Of a stretch of DNA of 64,000 bases, positions 5,666-37,240 are shown piece after piece; the first letter of the stretch is position 1; each line of letters begins with the position of its first letter. This stretch comes from Candidatus Sulfotelmatobacter sp. (lineage in GTDB: Bacteria; Acidobacteriota; Terriglobia; Terriglobales; Acidobacteriaceae), in NCBI GenBank assembly GCA_052326105.1, contig JBKQRC010000002.1:11178-75177 (forward strand), given 5' to 3'. The notes beneath the pieces are model-generated. The model was not told where the DNA came from, did no database searches, and saw nothing but the letters and a program-made list of their open reading frames with translations. The translations under genes and the position numbers were made by a program.

Positions 5666-6781
5666 ATGTCGACGTTTACGCGGCGTCAATTCAATCAGAC
5701 CCTGACGGCAGCTATTGGCTCGGGCTTGCACCCCGGTGTGCTGGGGGTTAGCTCATCAGCGGGGATGCAACCACCGACTTCAGCCGGATCCATTACCGAC
5801 GTGCCGGGCATCAAAGCCGCTCATTCAACAGACTCGCGCCGGCCTACGGGCTGCACCGCGTTGCTCTTCGAGGGCAAAGTTACCGCCGGTGTGGACTACG
5901 ATGGCTCGGCCCCCGGCTCACATTTGGGTGTCTTGCTTCAACCGGTCAGTCCAATTGACGCGATCCATGGAATTCTGTTGGCCGGTGGAGGACCCCTCGG
6001 CCTGTCGGCCGTCCCAGGAGCGGTTCGCTACCTGGAGGAGCACAAGATCGGACTAGATTGGGGAATCCCCGGGGTTCGAATTCCGATTGTTGTGGGCGCG
6101 GTGATTGACGACTTGTCGCTGGGAGACGGGAGAATTCGCCCGGACGCGGACGCCGGCTACAGGGCCTGCAGCGCGGCCACCTCGGCGCAACTTGAAGAAG
6201 GCAATGTTGGCGCGGGGGCAGGGGCGACGGTTGGAAAAATGCTGAAAGACGCGGGTTACAAGGGAATGAAGTCCGGCCTCGGCACCTCCAGCCTTCGGCT
6301 TGGTGACGTCGTTATCGGCGCGCTGGTGGTGGCCAATGCGGTCGGTGATATCGTGGACCGGCACACTGGGAAAATCGTTGCGGGAGCGATCCGGCCGGAT
6401 GGCAAGGGATTCGCCAATCTCAGTGAAACGCTCAAGCAGCTGGCCTCACGTTCAGTTTCCTCCTCCTTAGCCCTCAACGATGTGCCATTGCGCAGCACAA
6501 CGCTGGTGGTGGTTGCAACCAACGTCTCTTTCACCAAGACCGAGCTGACCGAGATTGCCATGATGGCCTCGACCGGGGCGGCGCGAGCCATCAATCCTTA
6601 CCATACGAATGGCGACGGTGACTCCACTTTTGCGGTTTCAACCAACAAGATACGTTCCGACCTCGGGATTTCTATGATTGGGGCATTGGCCGCGGACTTG
6701 GTCTCCGAAACTGTGGTTCGCGCCGTCACCTGCAGCAAGTCGGTTGAAGGCTGGCTGGCTGCCCGTGATTTGCAGTTCTAG
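5666..6781 (+). CDS. P1/S58 (DmpA/BapA-type) aminopeptidase family protein with Tat-like signal
   Basis: The ORF track gives 5561..6781. An internal MAMSTFTRRQFNQTLTAAIGSG is Tat-signal-like and is preceded by GGAGG at 5655-5659. Motifs ITDVPGIKAAH, PTGCTALLF, GVDYDGSAPGS and LLAGGGPLGL are typical of the DmpA family. The start could be 5660 or 5666. Confidence 0.8.
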   Translation: MSTFTRRQFNQTLTAAIGSGLHPGVLGVSSSAGMQPPTSAGSITDVPGIKAAHSTDSRRPTGCTALLFEGKVTAGVDYDGSAPGSHLGVLLQPVSPIDAIHGILLAGGGPLGLSAVPGAVRYLEEHKIGLDWGIPGVRIPIVVGAVIDDLSLGDGRIRPDADAGYRACSAATSAQLEEGNVGAGAGATVGKMLKDAGYKGMKSGLGTSSLRLGDVVIGALVVANAVGDIVDRHTGKIVAGAIRPDGKGFANLSETLKQLASRSVSSSLALNDVPLRSTTLVVVATNVSFTKTELTEIAMMASTGAARAINPYHTNGDGDSTFAVSTNKIRSDLGISMIGALAADLVSETVVRAVTCSKSVEGWLAARDLQF

Positions 6782-7137
6782 TTTTGCGTTGGCTGGCTGG
6801 CGTGTTCGAGGCGTTTCATTCCGGGAAAAATTCGGGGGTTGGGGATACCCCCTCCCCCCCCATCCCTGGGAAGCCTTGACTGGCGCGGGTTGCACTGCCT
6901 CCGCTTTGACCATGTTCTGCTCTCTTGGCTGTGAATGGCAAGGTCAGATGTCACAGGATGGGAGCGGTCGCTGTGGATTTCGGAGGGGAAGTATGGGCAG
7001 CTGGGAAACGCAAGTCTGGGTATCCGAGGCGCCCACGCACCTTATTCACTTCAATGGTGCTAAGTTCCCAGGGCCTCAAATCGATTAGCGCGTTCCGACT
7101 TCAGCAGGTTCTCGGTAGCTAAGCGGCGAAATAGGAA

Positions 7138-9062: not shown

Positions 9063-9380
9063 TCAAGCCGAGGCGGCAGGCCTCCGCGACTGGAAACATT
9101 CCCGACAGAAGACGGGGCGTCCCTGCGTGGGACGGAAAGGCACGGTGGTCTCTTTGCCGCAGCCCGAACAGGTGGCCTGGGTTTCGACCTTGGTGTAGCG
9201 GTAGGTCTGTCCGGCCGCAGGCGGGGCGCCGAGCACCGCAACCCGTTTGGCCTTGCACGCCTTGCAGCGCTTGGGTTCGTTCTTGAACTGCTTGTCGTGG
9301 AAGAAAAGCTGCTCCCCGGAGGTGAAAACAAAATCCCCCCCACAATCAATGCACTTCAGCACCTTGTCCTGAAACTCCAT
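9063..9380 (-). CDS. zinc-ribbon domain protein (two CxxC...CxxC modules)
   Basis: 105 aa ORF: CIDCGGDF...CKACKAK and CSGCGKET...CRECF. Small conserved-looking Cys4 x2 protein. Confidence 0.7.
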   Translation of the reverse strand: MEFQDKVLKCIDCGGDFVFTSGEQLFFHDKQFKNEPKRCKACKAKRVAVLGAPPAAGQTYRYTKVETQATCSGCGKETTVPFRPTQGRPVFCRECFQSRRPAASA

Positions 9381-9644
9381 TGAGGATGGCTCCCTTCAGC
9401 CCGTTTCCACGCGCCCACCCGCGGGGAAAGAACTGCGGTGGTACGGAGAAAAACAGGATATGTACATCTCCCCCCTCGCACTGCCCCTTGGACTCGGCCC
9501 GCCATGCTCCGGGAATGGAGCGTGGGTACTGACTATCCCGCTATTATGCCGAAGTGATGAGTATGACATCCCCTGCTGCAGCTCAATCGAGTGGGGGCTC
9601 GATGGAGCGGGGCCGCCCCGGGAGGGGGCAGCCCTTTGCTCGAG

Positions 9645-9842
9645 TCAATCCTGTTCTTTGCGCGTTTTCTTGCGGGCTCGCTTGCGAGCCAGCGCGGCCT
9701 TTACACGTTTTTTTTCGCCGGGCTTCAGGTAGAAGGAGTGGCGCTTAACCTCCTTGATGATGTCTTCCTGTTGCACCTTGCGCTTGAAGCGGCGTAGAGC
9801 GTTCTCGAGGGATTCTCCCTCTTGAAGTCGTACTTCTGCCAA
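9645..9842 (-). CDS. rpsU: 30S ribosomal protein S21
   Basis: 65 aa: MAEVRLQEGESLENALRRFKRKVQQEDIIKEVKRHSFYLKPGEKKR... This is the canonical S21 sequence pattern. Confidence 0.95.
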   Translation of the reverse strand: MAEVRLQEGESLENALRRFKRKVQQEDIIKEVKRHSFYLKPGEKKRVKAALARKRARKKTRKEQD

Positions 9843-10104
9843 ACTGACACACCCCCAAACTCGTCCGGTGGGACCGAATAGTTATTACAAGGAATTAGCT
9901 CTAAGTCAAGGGGAAGGCCGAAATTCCCGAAGTGGAACGTCTTCGGGGAACGGCGCTGAGATCATTTTGAGACGATTTGTCTGCAACATGACCATGAGTC
10001 ACATGCCTCTCCGTTTTAGGTTCGGGCATGTGCTGGGCGGCACGGCTGAAGCCGTGCCCTGATGCGGGGCCCTGGATGATGCGACGACCTTCTCACTCAG
10101 GCCG

Positions 10105-27707: not shown

Positions 27708-30428
27708 TCAGGGATTGGGCCGCATGTCGCTGGAGATTCCGCCGGCGGCGGGGGCATAGCACTTCAGCGTGTAATCCATGACCATGCGATCGGCGCTGAA
27801 CCGCCAACCCAGCGTGCGGATGGCTCGTTTCATGCGCTTGATCCAGCCTCGGGGAAGACCGTCGCGATCCCGCTGGTAGTAGAGGGGAATGACTTGGTCG
27901 CGCAGCGTGCGCAGCAAGTCCTCGCCATCCCGGGTGTCATGCACGCTCATGTTCGAATGAGTTCTGCCGGTGCCAATGGCAAAACCGTTCATGCCATCGT
28001 AGGCTTCGGCCCACCAGCCATCGAGGATGGAGAGATTCAATCCTCCATTGAGTACGACTTTCTGGCCGCTGGTGCCTGACGCTTCCTGGGGCCGGCGCGG
28101 GTTGTTCAGCCAGACGTCCACGCCCTGCACAAAATGGCGCCCGACGTTAATGTCGTAGTCCTCGACGAACACGAACTTGTCGCGGAACTGCGGGTCGCGC
28201 ATCATTCCTGCAATCTGCTGCAGAACTCGCTTGCCGGGTTCGTCCAGCGGGTGGGCCTTGCCGGCGAACACAAATTGAACGGGGCGGTTCGGGTCGTTCA
28301 CCATCGCGGCCAGTTTCTCGATGTCTTTCAGAACCAGATTGGCCCGCTTGTAGGTGGCGAAGCGGCGGGCAAAGCCGATGGTGAGCGCATCCGGACTCAG
28401 CACCCGTTCCAGCCGCTGCAGCACTTCGCGCGACTCTCCCCGGCGTTCTGCCTGTTCCACGGCCCGCCGGCGCACAAACTCGATCAGCTGTGACTTGAGG
28501 GAAAGATGCGTCTCCCAAAGTTCGCCGTCGTCCACATCCTCGATGCCTTCCCAGATCTTGGCTTCGCTGCTGCGCTGTTGCCAGCCTGTGCCCAAGTGGC
28601 GGTCGTAGAGGCGAAACATATGCGTCGCCAGCCAGGAGGGAACGTGGACTCCGTTGGTGATGTGTCCGATGGGAACATCGTCCTCCGCCTTGCCGTGGAA
28701 CAGCCCGGTCCACATGGCGCGGGAGACTTCGGCATGGAGCGCCGAGACGGCGTTAGCGCGGCGCGAGAGGCGCAGCGCCAGGACCGTCATGCAGAAGAGT
28801 TCCTCGGTGTTGTCCGGCTTCTCGCGGCCCAGACCGAGCAGGCTTTCCTGGGTCAGGCCCAGCGCCTCGCGCAAGGGCCCAATGTGCTCCTCCACCAGAG
28901 CCGCGCTGAAGCGGTCGTGGCCAGCCGGGACCGGCGTGTGCGTGGTGAAGACCACTTCGCGGGACACTCGCGGAACCGCGGCCTCAAAACTGATGCCTTC
29001 GTCCTCCATCCGCATGCGAATGGCCTCCAGCACCGCAAACCCGCTATGGCCTTCATTCAGGTGGAGCACGCCGGGAGAAATCCCCAACGCCTTCAGAGCC
29101 CGCAGTCCTCCCACACCGAGCAGCACCTCTTGACGAATCCGGATGCGGAGATCCCCGCCGTACAACCGCGAAGTGAGCTCGCGGTCTTCTGGCTCATTCC
29201 CCTCCACATCCGAATCCAACAGCAGAAGGTCGCGGCGTCCAACTTTCACGCGCCAGACCTTGGCCTGAATCCGGCCACTCCGGGTCTGGATTGCCACGAC
29301 GACCGGCCTGCCGTCTTTGCCAATCGCTGCTTCCATGGGCAAGTGATTCAGGTCGGTTTCGAGATATTCTTCCCGCTGCCATCCCCCCAGATCGAGCCGT
29401 TGCCGGAAGTACCCCTGGCCGTAGAACAACCCAATCCCCACGAGCGGGATATCAAGGTCAGAGGCGCTCTTGATGTGGTCTCCCGCCAGCACTCCCAGGC
29501 CGCCCGAGTAAACCGGCAACGACTCGTGCAAACCAAACTCCGCCGAGAAATAGGCCACCGGGTGGGGCCGCAGCACGCCGGCATGCCGGGCGCCCCAGGT
29601 GCGATCCGCCTCCAGGTATTCCAGCAGACGGCGGTAGGCATAGTTCACCCGGCTATGCAGCCTGAGTTCCGCCGCCCGGGTCTCCAGTTTCGCGAGAGGA
29701 AGTTCTCCCAGCAGCGAAATGGGATTGTGATTCAGCTTGCTCCAGCGGGCCGGATCAAGGTCAACGAACAGACTGGAAGAGTTGTGGTCCCAGCTCCACC
29801 AGAGATTTCGCGCGAGTTCCCAAAGACGCTCCTGCAACGGAGCGATGAAGCGGTCCAGGGCGCGGGCTTCGCTGACCACTGGAGCCACCTGGGTGGCGGC
29901 TTCAGTCAACATCCGGATCTCGTCTTCGCCAAAAACGCGCGCCTCAATGGTCTGCACCACCAGGACACCCTGCAGAACACCTCGATCAATGAGGGGAACG
30001 CCAAGGAAGGACTGGTACGCCTCCTCGCCGGCCTCGCGGAAGTACTTGAAGCGGGGGTGGCTCTTGACCTGGCTTACGGCGACGGGGCGCAATTGTTCCG
30101 CCACCAGTCCGGTGAGCCCTTCGTGAATCGCCATCCGCAGATTGCCGATGCACTCCCGGCGCAGTCCCACCGTTGCGGCCAGTACCAGATTGGCGCGATC
30201 CGGTTCAAGCAGGTATGCCGAGCAGACGTCTGTTCTAAATCGCTTGGCGACGAGCGCCACAACGTTCATCAGGATTTCGGCGGGTGACCCGCCTTCCGCC
30301 CCGAGGTTCCCGATCTCTTCCAGAGTCAGGACATTCCATGCGTCCCGCGAACGTACTTCTGGCTCCATTTCCTGTGCTGCCTCGTCGTATCGGTCCAAAG
30401 TCTGTTTCCCCAGCCTCCGGGAGGTCAT
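27708..30428 (-). CDS. glgP: alpha-glucan (glycogen/maltodextrin) phosphorylase with N-terminal GAF domain
   Basis: 906 aa. The N-terminal ~190 aa are GAF-like (VCSAYLLEPDRANLVLAATVGL...GLTGLVAEQLRPV...SFLGVPLI..GVLVVQT). The remainder is alpha-glucan phosphorylase (YFSAEFGLHESLPVYSGGLGVLAGDH, ...SGQKVVLNGGLNLSILDGWW). Confidence 0.9.
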   Translation of the reverse strand: MTSRRLGKQTLDRYDEAAQEMEPEVRSRDAWNVLTLEEIGNLGAEGGSPAEILMNVVALVAKRFRTDVCSAYLLEPDRANLVLAATVGLRRECIGNLRMAIHEGLTGLVAEQLRPVAVSQVKSHPRFKYFREAGEEAYQSFLGVPLIDRGVLQGVLVVQTIEARVFGEDEIRMLTEAATQVAPVVSEARALDRFIAPLQERLWELARNLWWSWDHNSSSLFVDLDPARWSKLNHNPISLLGELPLAKLETRAAELRLHSRVNYAYRRLLEYLEADRTWGARHAGVLRPHPVAYFSAEFGLHESLPVYSGGLGVLAGDHIKSASDLDIPLVGIGLFYGQGYFRQRLDLGGWQREEYLETDLNHLPMEAAIGKDGRPVVVAIQTRSGRIQAKVWRVKVGRRDLLLLDSDVEGNEPEDRELTSRLYGGDLRIRIRQEVLLGVGGLRALKALGISPGVLHLNEGHSGFAVLEAIRMRMEDEGISFEAAVPRVSREVVFTTHTPVPAGHDRFSAALVEEHIGPLREALGLTQESLLGLGREKPDNTEELFCMTVLALRLSRRANAVSALHAEVSRAMWTGLFHGKAEDDVPIGHITNGVHVPSWLATHMFRLYDRHLGTGWQQRSSEAKIWEGIEDVDDGELWETHLSLKSQLIEFVRRRAVEQAERRGESREVLQRLERVLSPDALTIGFARRFATYKRANLVLKDIEKLAAMVNDPNRPVQFVFAGKAHPLDEPGKRVLQQIAGMMRDPQFRDKFVFVEDYDINVGRHFVQGVDVWLNNPRRPQEASGTSGQKVVLNGGLNLSILDGWWAEAYDGMNGFAIGTGRTHSNMSVHDTRDGEDLLRTLRDQVIPLYYQRDRDGLPRGWIKRMKRAIRTLGWRFSADRMVMDYTLKCYAPAAGGISSDMRPNP

Positions 30429-30844: not shown

Positions 30845-33001
30845 ATGGAAGGAAAAGTCTCCCGCGTGGTTCGGCTTGGTGCAGGTTTACTGGGATTGAT
30901 GACCCTGGGATGGGTCCTGATCGGCCATGCCGCCAAACCCGTCCTGGAGGGGCTGCCCACGGACTGGACTCATCGGCATATCATCTTTTCCCAGCCTGCG
31001 ACGGCGGAGTTGGCAGGCATCGTTGCCCGTGATCCGCGGTACTGGCAGCAATGGTACCGGCAGAACGTCGCGCATGTCCTCGATGACGGCGTTGAGAATT
31101 CCGCCGAGATAGCCACTTGGCGCGATCGCCCCAAGGCGACGAGCAGCATACATCGCGACTGGTCCGAGGGTCTCGGCAATCTTGGTACCGTTGGTGCGGG
31201 CAACTATCCCGCCAAGTATTCGTTCAGCGTCACCACGGCAAGCTGCGGCAGTGCGGCCACGCCGGACTTTGTGGCTTTCAGCACCGGTTTGACAGGCTCG
31301 GGAACACAGGCCAGCATCGTTGCCTTCGACAATCTTTATTCTGGATGCCCCACCGGAACCATACCTTCGGTCTATTGGGCCTACAACACCGGCGGGCAGA
31401 TTCTCACTTCTCCCGTATTTTCGCGCGATGGTTCGCAGCTGGCTTTTGTGCAAACCAGTGCCGGCGCAGCCAGCCTGGTTCTGTTGAGGTGGAAGGCCTC
31501 GACCACTGAGACGGTAGGCGGTCCGGTAGCTCCTACGTCGGTTCCTCCAGCTTCATATCCCGGCTGTACTACGCCCTGCATGACTACAATCGCCTTGACC
31601 AGCGGCGGCGGGACCCCCGCCGCGACCAACGATACGACCTCGTCGGTTTTCTACGACTACGTGGGCGATACTGCCTGGGTGGGCGATGCCAAAGGCTGGC
31701 TGCATCAGTTCACTCCAGTGTTCAGTAACACTGCCGCCCCGGCCGAAATCAGGACGGCGCCCTGGCCCGTTCAGGTCAATACAACCGCGCCCACCGCGCT
31801 CACCAGTCCCGTCCATGATCATGTGTCGGGCAATGTCTTCGTGGAGGATCAGGGAGGGTTTCTCTACGCCGTGAGTGCCTCATCTGGAGCGGTGACCACG
31901 TCGGGCCGGTTGGATTTCGCTCCCGCCGCCGATATCGTTGGCGGTCTTGTCGTGGACCCGTCCGCGCAGAAGGTGTATGTCTTTGCCTCCAGCGACGGCA
32001 CCACCAATTGCACGGGTCCAGCTCCCTGCTCGGCGGTCTACCAATTGGCCACCAACTTCACCGGCGGAACGGGCTCGGAAGTCACGGTCGGGACCAGCAG
32101 TGCGGCTCCTAATCCCTTGTATGACGGCGCCTTCGACAACGCCTACCAAACTTCCTTGAACGCCACCGGAAATATCTATGTTTGCGGAGATACAGGGGTC
32201 AACCCGATGCTGTGGCAGGTCCCGATTACGGCCGGAACCTTTGGCACTGCCCTAGAGGTTGCGCCGCTAACTCCCGTTGGAAACCATCGCGCGTGTTCTC
32301 CCGTGACCGATATCTTGAACCCAAGTGCAGCCGGAGGCGCACCCGAGGAGCGGGTGTTCTTTAGCGTGACCCTCAACGCCCACCCGACGATATGCGCCAA
32401 TGGGGGCTGTGCCCTGAGCCTGGTGAATATGCCTTGGCAGAAAGGTACTACCTACTCGGTGGGTCAGGAGGTTCTGATTTACAGGATTGCGAGCACCGCT
32501 TTCTACGTCGATGTGGCTATCAACGCGACGCCCGGCACCTCGGGGGGGACCGTTCCCGCATGGCCGGCCGCGATCGGTAACGTTACGCACGATGGCGGCG
32601 TCACATGGCTCAACCAGGGAACCGCTGTTTTTACAGCGCTGGCGAACTGGGCAGGAGGGCATGCCTACGCTCAACGCGCCCGTATTGTCGACAGTAATGG
32701 CAACGTCGAGGTCGTGATCGTAGGGGGAGCGGGAACTTCCGGCGGCACCGATCCTGCCTGGGCCACAACGGCTGGCCTGAATACCACCGACGGCACAGTG
32801 ACGTGGGTCAATGCCGGTGTATTGGCCGCCGCAGGTTTGCCCGCGACCGGAGGCACAAGCGGAATTATCATAGATAACACCGTCAGCCAGACAACGCAGG
32901 CGGGAGCTTCTCAGCTATACTTCAGCACTCTGGGCAATGAGGCTTGTCCGACAACGTCAACCGGCTGCGCAGTGCAGGCGTCTCAGACTCAATTAAAATA
33001 G
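30845..33001 (+). CDS. secreted hypothetical protein, beta-propeller-like middle region and two C-terminal ~60-aa repeat modules
   Basis: The ORF track gives 30830..33001. The ATG at 30845 has GAGGAG 7 nt upstream. It has a signal/anchor (VVRLGAGLLGLMTLGWVLIGHA) and blade-like segments (VYWAYNTGGQILTSPVFSRDGSQLAFV; GNVFVEDQGGFLYAV; KVYVFASSDG). I recognise no named family. Confidence 0.7.
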   Translation: MEGKVSRVVRLGAGLLGLMTLGWVLIGHAAKPVLEGLPTDWTHRHIIFSQPATAELAGIVARDPRYWQQWYRQNVAHVLDDGVENSAEIATWRDRPKATSSIHRDWSEGLGNLGTVGAGNYPAKYSFSVTTASCGSAATPDFVAFSTGLTGSGTQASIVAFDNLYSGCPTGTIPSVYWAYNTGGQILTSPVFSRDGSQLAFVQTSAGAASLVLLRWKASTTETVGGPVAPTSVPPASYPGCTTPCMTTIALTSGGGTPAATNDTTSSVFYDYVGDTAWVGDAKGWLHQFTPVFSNTAAPAEIRTAPWPVQVNTTAPTALTSPVHDHVSGNVFVEDQGGFLYAVSASSGAVTTSGRLDFAPAADIVGGLVVDPSAQKVYVFASSDGTTNCTGPAPCSAVYQLATNFTGGTGSEVTVGTSSAAPNPLYDGAFDNAYQTSLNATGNIYVCGDTGVNPMLWQVPITAGTFGTALEVAPLTPVGNHRACSPVTDILNPSAAGGAPEERVFFSVTLNAHPTICANGGCALSLVNMPWQKGTTYSVGQEVLIYRIASTAFYVDVAINATPGTSGGTVPAWPAAIGNVTHDGGVTWLNQGTAVFTALANWAGGHAYAQRARIVDSNGNVEVVIVGGAGTSGGTDPAWATTAGLNTTDGTVTWVNAGVLAAAGLPATGGTSGIIIDNTVSQTTQAGASQLYFSTLGNEACPTTSTGCAVQASQTQLK

Positions 33002-33187
33002 ATGGACCAGGTTCCTCCTATGGCTATGAACGATGTGCCCTCTGACAATCCGCGTACTCCAGTTATGAAGAAGCCGTATGAAAAGCCATCGTTCCGGTAC
33101 GAACAGGTGTTTGTTACCACCGCCCTTTCGTGCGGGAAGGTGGCCGGCACACAGGGCAACTGCCTTCATCTCGGCAGCGCGTCATGA
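33002..33187 (+). CDS. candidate RiPP precursor peptide (61 aa; 40 aa if started at ATG 33065)
   Basis: ...MKKPYEKPSFRYEQVFVTTALSCGKVAGTQGNCLHLGSAS. It has a YxxPxF motif, a TT pair, two Cys and a C-terminal Ser. Its stop overlaps the ATG of the next gene (ATGA at 33184-33187). Third-position GC is high, like the neighbouring genes. Small ORFs arise by chance in GC-rich DNA, so confidence is moderate. Confidence 0.5.
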   Translation: MDQVPPMAMNDVPSDNPRTPVMKKPYEKPSFRYEQVFVTTALSCGKVAGTQGNCLHLGSAS

Positions 33188-33663
33188 AGCCTCTGCCGCC
33201 AGCATCCGGCGAAGCCCATGCTGTCAAATGCGAACTGGCGGGCGACATCCTGCATTCGTCTGGAACCTTGCGCCTGCGGGTGATGGGCTGGAGCATGCTG
33301 CCCAGCTTGTGGCCCGGCGACACGCTGGTGATTGAGCGGGTGGAGAGCGGCGCGGTTTCTGAAGGAGATATTGTCCTGTTCGGCCGCGACCGCCGGCTTT
33401 TTGCCCACCGCGTGGTAGCGAAAAGCAGCCCGGCCGGGGACACGAGGATTTTGACCCGCGGCGACGCCATGCCGCAGCCGGACCCGCCCCTGTCAGAGCA
33501 CGATATGCTGGGAAAAGTCACGTCTGTCGTTCGCAATGGGAAGTGTATTGAGCCGAGCAGGACTCCGCGCCTTTCCGAGCGCGCGGTTGCAGCTTTGGTT
33601 CGAAACTCGGAAATCGCTGCCCGTGTCGTTGTGGGCGTACACGGCATGCGTCAAACGTCGTAA
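33184..33663 (+). CDS. S26-family peptidase, SipW/ER (Ser-His) type, apparently soluble
   Basis: VMGWSMLPSLWPGDTLVIERV (S-M-x-P catalytic Ser box), GDIVLFGRDRRLFAHRVV (His where bacterial LepB has Lys) and TRGDAMPQPDPP (cf. SipW TKGDNN..D). There is no clear N-terminal TM anchor. The start was taken at ATG 33184 (ATGA overlap) rather than the track start 33130. Confidence 0.75.
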   Translation: MKPLPPASGEAHAVKCELAGDILHSSGTLRLRVMGWSMLPSLWPGDTLVIERVESGAVSEGDIVLFGRDRRLFAHRVVAKSSPAGDTRILTRGDAMPQPDPPLSEHDMLGKVTSVVRNGKCIEPSRTPRLSERAVAALVRNSEIAARVVVGVHGMRQTS

Positions 33664-33676
33664 GATCGAGTATCCC

Positions 33677-34507
33677 TTGCCAGAATTAACCGCCGAAGTC
33701 GAATGCCTCAGCCTCGTGATCGAAATCGGAGGCATGCCCGTCCGTGTGAATACGACGGACCCGGGCTTCCTGGCCATGCTCGAGCGCCGCTACTCAGGCT
33801 TTTTGGGCTTATCAGAAAAAGCTGAAATGGAATTTGATGTTGATCTGGTTCAGCCTGGCTCGGCTGAGCTTGGCTTCGCCGATCCCGATGCCGGCGTGAG
33901 CGTGACTCAGCATCGGGGCCGCTGGTCTCTGACTCGCGGCGATTTTCGGGCCGAGTGGGAACCGGCAGCCCGGAAGGGCTGGATTCGCCAGTCGGCCAAT
34001 CCTTATTCGATCGATGCGGTGCTTCGCATTGTGCATTCGCTTGTGCTGGCCCGGCAGGGCGGCTTCCTGCTGCACTCGGCCAGCGCCCTGCGAAACGGGA
34101 AGGCATTCCTTTTCGCCGGCGTTTCCGGCGCGGGGAAGACCACCATTTCCCGGCTGGCGCCTTCCGACGCTACTCTTCTTACCGACGAAATCTCCTACGT
34201 CCGCAAACAGGGCGACGGTTATGTGGCCTTCGGCACTCCGTTCACCGGGGAACTGGCCAAGCTGGGCGAGAATGTTTCGGCGCCGGTCGCCGCACTCTAC
34301 CTGCTGGCACAAGGCCCGGAAAACAGGATTGACCCGGTCGCGCCCGGCGAAGCCGCCCGGTCTCTTCTTGCCAATGTTTTGTTTTTCGCGGAAGATGAAG
34401 AACTGGTGCAGGCCGAGTTTCATTCCGCTTTCGAGTTCGTAAGCCGGGTACCGGTTTCGCGCCTTACCTTTGTGCCCGATGCCCGGGTGTGGGAGTTGAT
34501 TCGATGA
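33677..34507 (+). CDS. HPr-kinase-like P-loop serine kinase (HprK-related)
   Basis: LHSASALRNGKAFLFAGVSGAGKTTISRL...LLTDEISYV...FGTPFTGE is the HprK C-terminal-domain pattern with a Walker A motif. The start is uncertain: TTG 33677, GTG 33716 and ATG 33734 are candidates, or GTG 33623/TTG 33629 overlapping the peptidase gene. The ORF-track start 33536 would overlap by 128 nt. Confidence 0.75.
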   Translation: MPELTAEVECLSLVIEIGGMPVRVNTTDPGFLAMLERRYSGFLGLSEKAEMEFDVDLVQPGSAELGFADPDAGVSVTQHRGRWSLTRGDFRAEWEPAARKGWIRQSANPYSIDAVLRIVHSLVLARQGGFLLHSASALRNGKAFLFAGVSGAGKTTISRLAPSDATLLTDEISYVRKQGDGYVAFGTPFTGELAKLGENVSAPVAALYLLAQGPENRIDPVAPGEAARSLLANVLFFAEDEELVQAEFHSAFEFVSRVPVSRLTFVPDARVWELIR

Positions 34508-34821
34508 GCAGGCTTTTTGTGGCGCGGAATCCCCGGGTGGCGGCGCGCTGCCTCGACGGCGAAATGATGATTATGTCGGGGCGGGATTCGACTCTCTTCA
34601 CCCTGAACCGGACGGCGACCATCCTCTGGCAAGCGGCGGACGGGACGACCCCGCTGGATGAGATCGTGCAATCGAAGATTTGCCCCGAATTCGATGTCGA
34701 ACCCGCCGAGGCGCTGCAGGATGCCGAGACTCTGGCGCGGGAACTTGCCGGCCATGAGATCTTGCAGATCTCCGAAGAACCGATCCCGGCGGGAAAGGCA
34801 TTGGCTGGAGAATCCCGATGA
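34504..34821 (+). CDS. PqqD-family protein (RiPP recognition element-like chaperone)
   Basis: MSRLFVARNPRVAARCLDGEMMIMSGRDSTLFTLNRTATILWQAADGTTPLDEIV...AETLARELAGHEIL is the typical PqqD/RRE pattern. The ATG at 34504 overlaps the kinase stop (ATGA). Confidence 0.85.
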   Translation: MSRLFVARNPRVAARCLDGEMMIMSGRDSTLFTLNRTATILWQAADGTTPLDEIVQSKICPEFDVEPAEALQDAETLARELAGHEILQISEEPIPAGKALAGESR

Positions 34822-35927
34822 GCGGACTGCTCGAGCAGATGACCGAGAAGGCGCTGGCCCTGAACATTCCGCTCAGCGTCCAACTCGATCTCACCTACCG
34901 CTGCAATGAGCGGTGCGTGCACTGCTATCTCGATCATGACGATCACGGCGAGATGACGACCGAGGAAATCAAGCATCTCCTCGACGAAATGGCCGCGGCG
35001 GGCGTCTTCATTTTGACCCTAAGCGGCGGTGAAATCTTCGTACGCAAGGATTTCTTCGAAATTCTCGAGTACGCCCGCCAGCGGACCTTCTGCATAAAGC
35101 TCAAGACCAATGCCATCCTGATTCGCGAAGCCGAGGCGGCGCGCATCCGCGATCTCGGCGTCGAATCCATCCAGATCAGCATTTACTCTCACCGCCCCGA
35201 AGTTCACGATGCCATCACGCTGGTGCGGGGCTCGCTCGAGCGCTCTCTGGATGCGATTCGCTTTCTCAAGTCGCAGGGGTTGCGTGTCGTCATAGCCAAC
35301 GTTCTGATGATCCAGAATGTGCAGGATTACACCGGTGTACGCGCGCTGGCCGAAGAATTGGGCGTCGAGTCCACGCTTGATCCGACGATCACGCCGATGA
35401 TGGATGGCAACCGCTCGGTCCTGAACCTGGCCGTCGACCAGAGCGCCCTGCAGCAGGTCTTTCGCGATACGGGCCTGGTGGGGAATGTGGACGAATTCTG
35501 CGCGGTCGCAGCGCCCGCCGATGAGAGCGCGCTGTCATCCCTACCCTGCAGCGCCAGTCACACCACTTGCTATGTTTCGCCGTATGGCGACGTTTTTCCC
35601 TGCGTCCAGTTTCCGCTTCCCACCGGCAATGTCAGGAAGCAGCGCTTCCTTGACATCTGGCGGCACTCGGATCAGATGAATGAAGTGCGTGGGATCCGAA
35701 TCAAGGATCTGACGACCTGCACCCAGTGCTCTCACGTGTCAAGCTGCTCGCGGTGTCCCGGCTTGGCCTTTATGGAAGGAAATATGCGCGGGCCCTCGAC
35801 GCAGGATTGCGAGAAGTCCTTCGCGAGGACCGGAGTTCCGTCGGCAAATATGCTGTCGAAAAAGCGCGCACGGGCAAATCTCGTCCAGATTCGGACGCTT
35901 CCGGCCTTGGCAAGCGCGTCTGCTTAA
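34818..35927 (+). CDS. radical SAM enzyme with SPASM domain
   Basis: CNERCVHC (CxxxCxxC, nt 34902-34925), GGEIF, and a C-terminal SPASM pattern (LPCSASHTTCYVSPYGDVFPC...GNV...FLDIW...CTQCSHVSSCSRCPGLA). The ATG overlaps the PqqD stop (ATGA). Confidence 0.9.
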   Translation: MSGLLEQMTEKALALNIPLSVQLDLTYRCNERCVHCYLDHDDHGEMTTEEIKHLLDEMAAAGVFILTLSGGEIFVRKDFFEILEYARQRTFCIKLKTNAILIREAEAARIRDLGVESIQISIYSHRPEVHDAITLVRGSLERSLDAIRFLKSQGLRVVIANVLMIQNVQDYTGVRALAEELGVESTLDPTITPMMDGNRSVLNLAVDQSALQQVFRDTGLVGNVDEFCAVAAPADESALSSLPCSASHTTCYVSPYGDVFPCVQFPLPTGNVRKQRFLDIWRHSDQMNEVRGIRIKDLTTCTQCSHVSSCSRCPGLAFMEGNMRGPSTQDCEKSFARTGVPSANMLSKKRARANLVQIRTLPALASASA

Positions 35928-36052
35928 CAGACCGTGTCGCGAATACGATTCGTATCAGGGTATGCCTTCAGGCATACCGCGAGTACTGAGTTATCTCTGC
36001 GCCTTCAGGCGCTGAATTTGCGACTCTGAGTTTCGCCACGGCTTGTTGACTC

Positions 36053-37240
36053 GTGCGCGCGGGTCGTACCAAAATCATGCCCGGGACTGGCGCCACGCCC
36101 GATGCCGAGTGGTCCATACTGCTAGCCGCGTGTTCCCGAGCGCCGTTCGAGGAGAAACGCAGCCTCCTTCTGCCCCAGCTTCAGCAACCGGTTCGCTGGC
36201 AGAGACTTTTTGCTCTCGCCGATGAGCACGGCGTCCAGCCACTCTTATACGAGTCGCTATCGCGCCTTCAGGAAGCGGTTCCTGCCAATGAGTTTGGTTC
36301 CCTGCAACAAAGTTGCCGGACCAATCTGCACAAAGCCCTGTTGCTTTCGCGCGAGTTGATTCGAATCATCGAGCACCTCTCTGCACTCGGCATTGAGGTC
36401 ATGCCTCACAAGGGCCCGGCCTTGGCCGAAGTTCTCTACGCCGACATCGCCTTGCGGCAGGCTGGCGATATCGACCTGATCGTCCATCCGCAGGATTTGC
36501 ATCGCATCCGCGATGCGGTCGGCGAACTCGGCTACACGCCACACGACCATTTCTCCGCCAGGGAAGAACGGGCGTATCTGAAATCGGGATACGAATATGC
36601 CTTCGACGGTGTCGCCGGGCCCAACCTTCTGGAGTTGCAGTGGGCGATTCAGCCGCGATTTTATGCAGTCGATTTCGACATGGACGGCCTGTTCCAGCGG
36701 GCCGTGACTATCACGGTGGCTGGCCGGCCGATGAAGACTCCGGCACCCTCCGACCTGCTTCTCACTCTGTCACTGCACGCGGCCAAGCATGTGTGGAGGC
36801 GGCTCGCCTGGCTCTGCGATATCGCGCAGCTGATCAGCCTGCCCAACCTCGACTGGGACTGGATCGGATCGCAGGCCCAAGACTTGGGAATGTTGCGAAT
36901 CTTGCGCGTCACCCTGCTCGCGGCCAGCCAGTTGCTGCGCGCTTCCATCCCCGCCGCGGTACAGAAGATTTTCCCCGAAGATCGCGAAGCGCCTGCGCTG
37001 GCAGAGGAGATCCGGACTTATATCGTCAGCGAGTCTGCCTTCAATGTCGAGTCGCTGGCGTATTTCCGCCTGATGATGCGCCTGCGCGAAAGGCCGGCAG
37101 ACCGGATGCGATTTCTCGCGCGCCTGGTGTTTACGCCCGGCCCCGGCGAATGGGCGGCGGTTCATCTCCCCGGACCTTTATTCCCGCTATACCGTCTGGT
37201 CCGGATTTCTCGTCTGGCGGCGAGACTGGCCGGAGCTTGA
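36053..37240 (+). CDS. uncharacterised nucleotidyltransferase family protein (PF14907/NTP_transf_5-like)
   Basis: The N-terminal EWSILLAACSRAPFEEKRSLL...VRWQRLFALADEHGVQPLLYESL and central KGPALAEVLYADIALRQAGDIDLIV match my memory of this family. The start is GTG 36053 or ATG 36077. Confidence 0.75.
   Translation: MRAGRTKIMPGTGATPDAEWSILLAACSRAPFEEKRSLLLPQLQQPVRWQRLFALADEHGVQPLLYESLSRLQEAVPANEFGSLQQSCRTNLHKALLLSRELIRIIEHLSALGIEVMPHKGPALAEVLYADIALRQAGDIDLIVHPQDLHRIRDAVGELGYTPHDHFSAREERAYLKSGYEYAFDGVAGPNLLELQWAIQPRFYAVDFDMDGLFQRAVTITVAGRPMKTPAPSDLLLTLSLHAAKHVWRRLAWLCDIAQLISLPNLDWDWIGSQAQDLGMLRILRVTLLAASQLLRASIPAAVQKIFPEDREAPALAEEIRTYIVSESAFNVESLAYFRLMMRLRERPADRMRFLARLVFTPGPGEWAAVHLPGPLFPLYRLVRISRLAARLAGA

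Follow-up and report, generated by a model that had tools for sequence, protein, structure and literature searches.

The window analysed here, a stretch of 64,000 nucleotides on contig JBKQRC010000002.1 of Candidatus Sulfotelmatobacter sp. (Acidobacteriota), carries between 30.8 and 37.2 kb on the + strand a series of co-directional genes, on which the open reading frame (ORF) table and the gene calls of the source contig are concordant (Table 1). An earlier note on this DNA had singled out six of these genes as an operon for a peptide that is synthesized ribosomally and then modified post-translationally (RiPP), comprising a precursor peptide, a SipW-type peptidase, an HprK-like kinase, a PqqD-type RiPP recognition element (RRE), a radical S-adenosylmethionine (SAM) enzyme with a SPASM domain and a nucleotidyltransferase. 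The co-directional arrangement with three start/stop overlaps described there agrees with the ORF table and the contig gene calls, and the domain assignments were borne out by Pfam and NCBIfam scans (S24, PF27840, PF05402, PF04055 with PF13186, and PF14907). In the sequence and the ORF table the overlaps are 4-bp ATGA overlaps at the junctions of the peptide and peptidase genes, of the genes for the P-loop protein of the ScmC family and for PqqD, and of the PqqD and radical SAM genes; the junction between the peptidase and ScmC-family genes is a 13-bp gap, given the TTG start called by NCBI. The operon probably begins upstream of the six genes, at 30845, with a gene for a secreted protein referred to here as BIG, whose stop codon abuts the peptide ORF.

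Table 1. Features of the operon in the window (positions of the window) and gene content of loci around distant ScmC relatives (prefix L; positions, where given, of the respective locus).
Feature	Position	Strand	Size and remarks
Secreted BIG protein	30845-33001	+	718-723 aa; ORF and contig gene call
Precursor peptide	33020-33187	+	55 aa, or 61 aa if started from the ATG at 33002
Predicted core	33119-33184	+	22 aa, TALSCGKVAGTQGNCLHLGSAS; boundary by homology to linear polyphosphorylated peptides
S24/S26-type SipW/archaeal-type (S26B-like) Ser/His peptidase	33184-33663	+	159 aa
ScmC-family P-loop protein	33677-34507	+	276 aa; PF27840
Discrete PqqD-type RRE	34504-34821	+	105 aa; PF05402
Radical SAM/SPASM protein	34818-35927	+	369 aa; PF04055 and PF13186
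Structured spacer	35928-36076	+	two UUCA-loop hairpins
PF14907 (NTP_transf_5) protein	36077-37240	+	387 aa; GTG at 36053 gives 395 aa
L090/L091			40% GC; ScmC, PqqD, radical SAM/SPASM, 61-aa peptide, S24 peptidase, B12-radical SAM, ABC exporter, PF14907
L088			64% GC; ScmC, PqqD, radical SAM/SPASM, S24-like peptidase, peptide
L087	4616-6461		38% GC, metagenome contig; ScmC, PqqD, PF14907, without radical SAM
L092	986-3114		GNAT acetyltransferase, ScmC, PqqD, without radical SAM

The earlier note could not place this combination in any characterised RiPP class, a statement that has to be revised: the linear polyphosphorylated peptides (LPPs) of Bacillota (Popov et al., Nat Commun, May 2026, PMC13381572) are made by a pathway that has a precursor, a SipW-type peptidase, an HprK-like kinase, an RRE and a nucleoside triphosphate (NTP) transferase and no cyclase. 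The LPP core consists of the precursor LppA, the HprK-like LppK, the RRE protein LppB, the signal peptidase I (SpI)-like LppS, the MsbA-like exporter LppD and the NTP transferase LppN (PMC13381572). LppK puts several phosphates on one core serine, S3, and the unphosphorylated precursor is poorly cleaved; LppS, with the catalytic residues S29, H68 and D93, cuts after T-1 in an RRE-dependent manner, and the whole 45-aa core is released (PMC13381572).

With the LPP loci the operon shares a leader that looks homologous (KKPY-x-x-P...F-E/V-T here, YxxPxVLxHQxIxFET there), a discrete PqqD-type RRE, a soluble SipW/archaeal-type Ser/His(/Asp) peptidase, an apparently HprK-like P-loop protein and a PF14907-type NTP transferase, as well as the lack of a lasso cyclase and B2 protease, and two-cysteine cores are also found among some LPPs. 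Outside the LPP family as described lie the radical SAM/SPASM enzyme, which is encoded in every locus of the acidobacterial type studied here and whose gene overlaps that of PqqD by 4 bp in the window; the ALxCGK motif, borne by a short core of fixed length, whereas LPP C-termini are highly variable (35-200 aa); the invariant C-terminal Ser, found instead of the S3 acceptor, which is replaced by Leu; the hosts, which are Acidobacteriota rather than Bacillota; and the linked gene for a secreted beta-propeller protein, where LPP clusters are linked to capsule loci. Furthermore, the leader is two residues shorter than in LPPs, the peptidase is nearer to cluster 3 of the published sequence similarity network (SSN) than to LppS, the MsbA-like exporter is absent from the acidobacterial loci and PF14907 is optional. 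The reading that we favour, and hold to be likely, is that this RiPP operon is an evolutionary relative of the LPP pathway in which a radical SAM/SPASM enzyme has been recruited as an integral component.

The precursor peptides provide the most detailed view of this relationship. The window's precursor is MAMNDVPSDNPRTPVMKKPYEKPSFRYEQVFVT, the predicted leader of residues 1-33, followed by TALSCGKVAGTQGNCLHLGSAS. Together with its homologues, which amount to 77 distinct peptides, it follows the pattern K-K-P-Y-x-K-P-x-F-R-x-E-x-V-F-(V/E)-T ↓ x-A-L-x-C-G-K-x(8-10)-C-x(6-8)-S-stop, in which the arrow marks the predicted cleavage. Within ALxCGK the A, the L, the first Cys and the K are each found in 76-77 of the 77 peptides and the Gly in 69, and in the leader segment Y-E-K-P-S-F the Y and P are each conserved in 76/77 and the F in 74/77. 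The two cysteines are spaced by 8-10 residues, with a spacing of 9 in 56/77 peptides including the window's core, and the tail past the last Cys comprises 6-8 residues. All 76 intact distinct peptides end in Ser, the lone exception, from L055, being a read-through ORF. An aromatic residue occurs in merely 17 of the 77 cores, and cyclophane-type chemistry is therefore disfavoured. A search of NCBIfam with the peptide matched no model, even at E = 10.

The LPP leader has the consensus YxxPxVLxHQxIxFETxxS (PMC13381572), and alignment with it needs a two-residue deletion in the acidobacterial leader, as illustrated by MNKQPYTAPQIMEQQDITFET ↓ VPS from Paenibacillus and KKPYEKPSFRYEQVFVT ↓ TAL from the window. 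The positions Y20-x-x-P23-x-F25...V30-F31-V/E-T33 are conserved across the 77 peptides; the xxS part of the consensus is unmatched, position +3 being the invariant Leu. The window's leader also satisfies the lasso-type RRE-recognition motif [Y/W]xxPx[L/V/I/F/A] as defined in PMC13381572. By homology to the LPP leader, cleavage is predicted after F-V-T33. Cleavage after T-x-A, following the -3/-1 rule of signal peptidases, was considered and dropped, as LppS cuts after the homologous T-1 and the precursor of the distant locus L090 has Q at -3. The ALxCGK motif was found only in precursors of loci that encode a radical SAM enzyme, namely the 77 distinct Terriglobia-type peptides and those of L088 and L090, and it is missing from the LPP precursors compared from the PMC13381572 supplement. 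Several Paenibacillus LPP precursors finish in a C-x10-C loop, for example FETKPSKPHPCDNGGHTGSPNCK, that resembles the C-x9-C here (PMC13381572 Supplementary Data 1).

The putative leader peptidase scores above the cutoff of Pfam Peptidase_S24 (26.2 bits) and below that of TIGR02228, the archaeal-type signal peptidase I model (45.1 bits, cutoff 51.85). Among 63 homologues G35, S37, M38, P40, H75, R76, G93 and D94 are invariant and D100 is found in 62, with no conserved Lys, and inspection by eye showed no obvious membrane segment. Its best BLASTP match is an RRE-associated SpI of SSN cluster 3 (42% identity, 70 bits), followed by LppS-type SpI proteins (27-31% identity, E down to 1.5e-13) and lastly by true SipW (25%). 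Cluster 3, which the LPP study did not take further, contains SpI peptidases encoded beside 'other' RREs in Acidobacteriota, Myxococcota, Chloroflexota and candidate phyla (PMC13381572).

The PqqD protein matches PF05402 with 44.7 bits, and its top NCBIfam models, those of lasso B1 (25.4 bits) and of the GeoRSP PqqD protein, all stay below cutoff. In BLASTP comparisons LppB reaches 30.4 bits, about equal to the 'other' RREs of cluster 3, and lasso B1 proteins reach 21.6-24.3 bits.

The protein encoded between the peptidase and PqqD genes has a precomputed Pfam assignment to PF27840, and a close homologue is named 'SynChlorMet cassette protein ScmC' in UniRef. The matches to curated models are weak (TIGR04249 ScmC, 35.7 bits with a cutoff of 125; HprK_rel_A, 22.9, and HprK_rel_B, 20.9, both local and each with a cutoff of 200). 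Conserved in the family are a Walker A motif, GVSGAGKTT, as well as H133 and D170-E171. Because of the P-loop, the conserved His and Asp-Glu, the gene context, the weak model matches and the analogies with LPP and lasso systems, the ScmC-family protein is predicted to be an ATP-dependent peptide kinase.

The radical SAM protein contains the CxxxCxxC motif and a Cys-rich SPASM domain (PF04055, 85.9 bits; PF13186, 42.1 bits), and its best curated matches all lie below cutoff, with MftC at 146.8 bits (cutoff 265), AhbD at 145.6 (500) and NirJ2 also among the best. PqqE follows at 103.4 (381.35), and the two radical SAM proteins of the SynChlorMet cassette, ScmE and ScmF, at 105.7 and 64.6 (each 400); of the models for sactipeptide, ranthipeptide and WGK enzymes, WgkB reaches 117.9 (650), StsB 96.2 (625) and AlbA 81.7 (850). 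At E below 1e-20 it has more than 7100 homologues; of the clusters formed at 90% identity, the top 120, chiefly from soil metagenomes, each share at least 81% identity with it. Radical SAM/SPASM enzymes are known to form alpha-, beta- and gamma-thioethers, and WgkB cross-links a W-G-K motif (PMC9389541). The operon resembles sactipeptide/ranthipeptide and WGK/tryglysin systems in that an RRE-dependent radical SAM/SPASM enzyme would act on a Cys-bearing core; in the operon's core family two Cys are invariant, and the invariant C-G-K recalls W-G-K. In contrast, none of these classes has the kinase, the SpI-like peptidase or PF14907.

How tightly these genes belong together was assessed in related genomes. 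A ScmC-profile scan of GTDB species genomes returned at least 392 relatives, and the best 80 of them, which were examined, all have the cassette and come nearly all from Terriglobia metagenome-assembled genomes; counted as representatives at 50% identity, ScmC-like clusters number 204 below 1e-30 and 3367 below 1e-10. In tblastn searches of the window proteins against 86 related loci, ScmC, PqqD and the radical SAM protein were each found in 86/86 loci and the order peptide-peptidase-ScmC-PqqD-radical SAM was kept in nearly all of them, a recurrence beyond chance that shows these five genes together outside this genome, as the earlier note had proposed to check. About 40 loci have the same order even though the flanking genes are wholly different, encoding for instance a resistance-nodulation-division (RND) pump, a membrane fusion protein, a SET-domain protein, CysK, threonine aldolase or an M48 peptidase. 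Between species the enzymes are 60-87% identical, which argues for selection. Near-identical cassettes were also noted on contigs binned as Verrucomicrobiia, Binatia, Deferrimicrobiaceae and Methylomirabilota (L016, L029, L051, L064, L066, L078), where mis-binning is a better explanation than horizontal transfer because the L016 peptide is identical to that of L001.

The PF14907 protein matches its family with 201.9 bits, and about 48 of the 86 loci, mainly the close and fully syntenic ones, have its gene; it lies elsewhere or on the other strand in L072, L075, L078, L079, L082 and L085 and is also relocated in the distant L090. Hence, it is best regarded as an enzyme for optional tailoring that corresponds to LppN and to the 'N' protein of lasso clusters. 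In the window it is separated from the radical SAM gene by 125-149 bp with two hairpins, GGUAUGCC-UUCA-GGCAUACC and GCGCC-UUCA-GGCGC, of identical loops; the spacer folds with -51.1 kcal/mol (z = -2.7 relative to shuffled sequences) and returned zero family matches in an Rfam scan, and a promoter and terminator scan of the locus gave nothing useful. As the two genes overlap in L001-L003 and are 13-33 bp apart in L004-L006, the long structured spacer looks specific to the window's lineage, where expression of the optional PF14907 tailoring gene might be uncoupled or attenuated by it. In L037 (12333-13379) and two other loci the slot of PF14907 directly 3' of the radical SAM gene holds a PF13528 glycosyltransferase (436 bits), which may be an alternative decorating enzyme.

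The distribution of these genes bears on whether the operon is a plain member of the LPP family, in which the radical SAM enzyme would be a lineage-specific secondary tailoring enzyme and the product in essence a phosphorylated peptide that stays linear. Agreement with LPP extends to five of the six genes and to the leader motif, and acidobacterial RRE-associated SpI proteins are already contained in cluster 3 of the published network. However, the radical SAM gene is present at all 86 loci and PF14907, an LPP core gene, at only about 48, the MsbA-like exporter is absent, S3 is replaced by Leu and ALxCGK is seen only together with a radical SAM gene. Moreover, LPPs are stated to be restricted to Bacillota (PMC13381572), and the text of that paper and the supplements examined contain no mention of radical SAM enzymes. 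We therefore regard plain membership as unlikely and favour the recruited, integral radical SAM enzyme.

Loci around ScmC proteins that are 34-39% identical to the window's were used as a more distant comparison (Table 1). L090, from a low-GC metagenome and with a ScmC 39% identical, has the window's gene set in a changed order, with a B12-radical SAM protein and an ATP-binding cassette (ABC) exporter in addition. Its precursor is homologous to that of the window (RPYEKPRAEDEKVFEQLALACGK...C...SSS, ending in SSS, of the form RPYEKP...VFEQLALACGK...C...SSS), and so is that of L088 (DYKKPRIASEKSFETSALACGK....). Since the distant loci hold homologous peptides and the same set rearranged, the gene set is linked by function and not by descent alone. 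At five of the seven distant ScmC loci PqqD lies immediately 3' of ScmC, and the contigs of the remaining two end at or just past ScmC; ScmC and PqqD are the constant pair, to which the radical SAM enzyme, the peptidase and PF14907 are add-on modules. A regex search for an LPP-like precursor in L087, L092 and L093, which lack a radical SAM gene, found none. The only match for ScmC in a search of plasmids was L096, in Prevotella sp. oral taxon 299 F0039 (NC_022111.1, 7608-8965), where the gene for a 302-aa protein 26% identical to ScmC overlaps that of a 162-aa S24-like peptidase; this remote kinase-peptidase pair, which occurs in a cultured organism, sits between sigma-70 and TonB-dependent receptor genes.

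The accessory set of PqqD, HprK-like kinase and PF14907 was rightly recognized in the earlier note as that of paeninodin-type phosphorylated lasso peptides, in which HprK-type kinases act on the C-terminal Ser of the linear precursor and the pseudomycoidin nucleotidyltransferase adds a hexose to the phosphate (PMC8498205). The operon might accordingly be a decayed or split lasso cluster, in which kinase, PqqD and PF14907 are left over and the cyclase and B2 protease are lost or encoded elsewhere in the genome. Besides the common accessory set, this would account for the YxxP motif of the leader, which like the discrete PqqD-type RRE is shared with paeninodin and pseudomycoidin, and for lasso B1 as the top NCBIfam match of PqqD. 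Yet the absence of both lasso enzymes, which the earlier note had reported for the operon, extends to the surroundings and to the homologous loci: no Asn-synthetase-like cyclase or transglutaminase-type B2 gene is called within 10 kb on either side of the radical SAM gene on the source contig or within 8 kb in L001-L006, the families recurring as neighbours in the 86 loci include neither, and the five distant loci whose flanks were usable have neither called. The conserved order, the tight overlaps and the identity of the enzymes across species also speak against decay, positions 7-9 of the core hold no Asp or Glu for a macrolactam, and a cyclase-free pathway of the same gene set works in Bacillota (PMC13381572). 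In place of the lasso enzymes there is a serine peptidase that is predicted to remove the leader, and a radical SAM/SPASM enzyme. A lasso origin by decay is thus highly improbable.

A further family to which the cluster belongs is the broader ScmC-PqqD(-radical SAM) cassette family flagged by TIGRFAMs as SynChlorMet. This cassette, with ScmC, the PqqD-like ScmD and the radical SAM/SPASM proteins ScmE and ScmF, is computationally defined in TIGRFAMs/NCBIfam, and we know of no precursor, substrate or product for it. The operon is like it in having a ScmC-family (PF27840) gene followed by PqqD and then radical SAM/SPASM, and differs from it in scores far under the equivalog cutoffs, in one radical SAM gene rather than two, and in that a precursor can be recognized and a SipW-type peptidase and PF14907 are encoded. 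In the literature searched, nothing relevant came up on SynChlorMet/ScmC, PF14907 with radical SAM, acidobacterial RiPPs or HPr kinase with radical SAM.

On the favoured reading, the pathway would proceed as follows. PqqD would bind the leader at Y-x-K-P-x-F and present the 55-aa precursor to the enzymes, as LppB and lasso B1 do. The ScmC-family enzyme would then phosphorylate the peptide, possibly repeatedly; the likeliest site is the invariant C-terminal Ser, since lasso HprK-type kinases target this residue and LPP S3 is Leu here. The radical SAM/SPASM enzyme would modify the peptide in or beside A-L-x-C-G-K, a placement suggested by the motif being seen only with a radical SAM gene and absent from the LPP precursors compared, and the likeliest product would be a thioether or other cross-link via Cys38 and perhaps Lys40. 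The soluble SipW-type peptidase, aided by the RRE, would remove the leader after F-V-T33 to yield the 22-residue core, and PF14907, at loci that have it such as the window, would add a sugar or nucleotide to the phosphate.

Several points weigh against this scheme. The chemistry of the window system is drawn throughout from sequence and analogy, the LPP phospho-acceptor S3 is not conserved in the family, and LppN gave no activity when expressed heterologously in the LPP study (PMC13381572). The ScmC family falls under the curated cutoff of every HprK-related model; a search of the PDB with the ScmC profile led to P-loop proteins and phosphoenolpyruvate carboxykinase (PEPCK) only and to no HprK, and the AF2 model, built on homologues just 79-94% identical, is poor (predicted local distance difference test, pLDDT, 53), with only ATP-dependent PEPCK found by Foldseek (E 1.7e-4). 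The predicted cleavage site follows from motif homology, and L090 has Q in place of T. The Cys pair may be a plain disulfide, because the cores of several Paenibacillus LPPs, made without a radical SAM enzyme, likewise contain a Cys pair with a spacing of about 10 residues. Finally, the C-terminal Ser could be the target of the radical SAM enzyme instead of the kinase; by analogy, MftC acts on a C-terminal residue.

The role of the product is probably tied to the co-encoded BIG protein, which has an N-terminal signal or anchor, a beta-propeller of about seven blades and two C-terminal repeats of the form GTSGGTxPxW...DGxVTWxNxG, with ten invariant and two near-invariant Cys. A Pfam search gave no match at E ≤ 0.01, and its homologues are all annotated as hypothetical, a few of them carrying a faint, PQQ-like PF13570. 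The AF2 model (pLDDT 66) retrieves generic beta-propellers in Foldseek (E ~1e-6), and these fold matches, to WD40, BamB, TolB and the methylamine dehydrogenase (MADH) heavy chain, are low in TM score and of a kind from which no function can be derived. Of the 68 peptide copies with sufficient sequence upstream, 54 have a BIG homologue directly 5', and BIG is accessory rather than part of the core, as it is missing from about nine loci whose upstream sequence is complete. Tandem arrays of BIG paralogues lie upstream of the cassette in L059, L072, L074 and L081, and additional precursor copies follow individual BIG copies in L072 (5118-5357, 9287-9520) and L081 (6557-6691, 9291-9473); L077 has three precursor copies with identical cores (1561-1833, 6447-6923, 9259-9489), the additional ones again following BIG copies. 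This joint duplication of the BIG and peptide genes suggests that the two work together.

PqqD together with a radical SAM/SPASM enzyme also brings to mind, as the earlier note remarked, a peptide-derived redox cofactor or small molecule made by the logic of pyrroloquinoline quinone (PQQ) and mycofactocin, in which a few residues are modified and a small product is excised for the cell or for the propeller. The best radical SAM matches, MftC, AhbD and NirJ2, and the score against PqqE fit such a route, as do the housekeeping-like conservation of the enzymes, with the radical SAM protein at least 81% identical over the top 120 clusters, the faint PQQ-like domain of some BIG homologues and the lack of an exporter in the acidobacterial loci (the gene calls of L001-L006 and of the 10 kb around the window's radical SAM gene include no ABC exporter). 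On the other hand, the radical SAM protein scores far under the cutoff of every curated family, the window's precursor ends in ...GSAS and has neither the E-x3-Y of PqqA nor the C-terminal GVY of MftA, and the loops between the invariant residues are variable, as in bioactive RiPPs. Genes for a second protease or for an oxidase are missing from the cluster, the distant L090 encodes an ABC exporter, and in LPP the whole 45-aa core is released. A cofactor-type product is therefore quite unlikely, and the modified whole core of the LPP-related pathway is the product that we favour.

A more specific proposal is that the modified peptide is not a free antibiotic but a dedicated partner of the secreted beta-propeller, as a ligand, small subunit or cofactor carrier. 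It is prompted chiefly by the duplication of the peptide and beta-propeller genes as a unit, and there is a precedent in quinohemoprotein amine dehydrogenase, where a gamma subunit cross-linked by a radical SAM enzyme assembles with a beta-propeller subunit. We put it forward as a speculation with a small chance of being right; if true, it would make the locus part of a widespread acidobacterial two-component extracytoplasmic system derived from an LPP/radical SAM hybrid pathway.

If the operon is indeed an LPP relative with an integral radical SAM enzyme, the LPP family extends into Acidobacteriota, contradicting the host limit stated for it, and the module of RRE, HprK-like kinase and SipW-type peptidase can be combined with radical SAM chemistry. 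ScmC-type cassettes thereby gain a concrete family of precursors, for which invariant residues are known and a cleavage site is predicted. That a secreted beta-propeller is repeatedly paired with the peptide hints at a function in soil bacteria that are abundant but poorly cultured. The scheme predicts a +80 Da series at the C-terminal Ser, a radical SAM-dependent change at CGK and cleavage after F-V-T.

In L014, L018, L027 and L076 (around 9100-10000) BIG and the precursor are gone, and the peptidase gene or a truncated ScmC gene is directly adjoined by a GAF-glycogen phosphorylase gene; either the cluster has decayed in some lineages or the precursor has moved. In the window the divergent neighbour of the operon, at 27708-30428 on the - strand, encodes a 906-aa alpha-glucan phosphorylase with DUF3417 and Phosphorylase domains and N-terminal GAF domains, which shows 78-94% identity among syntenic loci.

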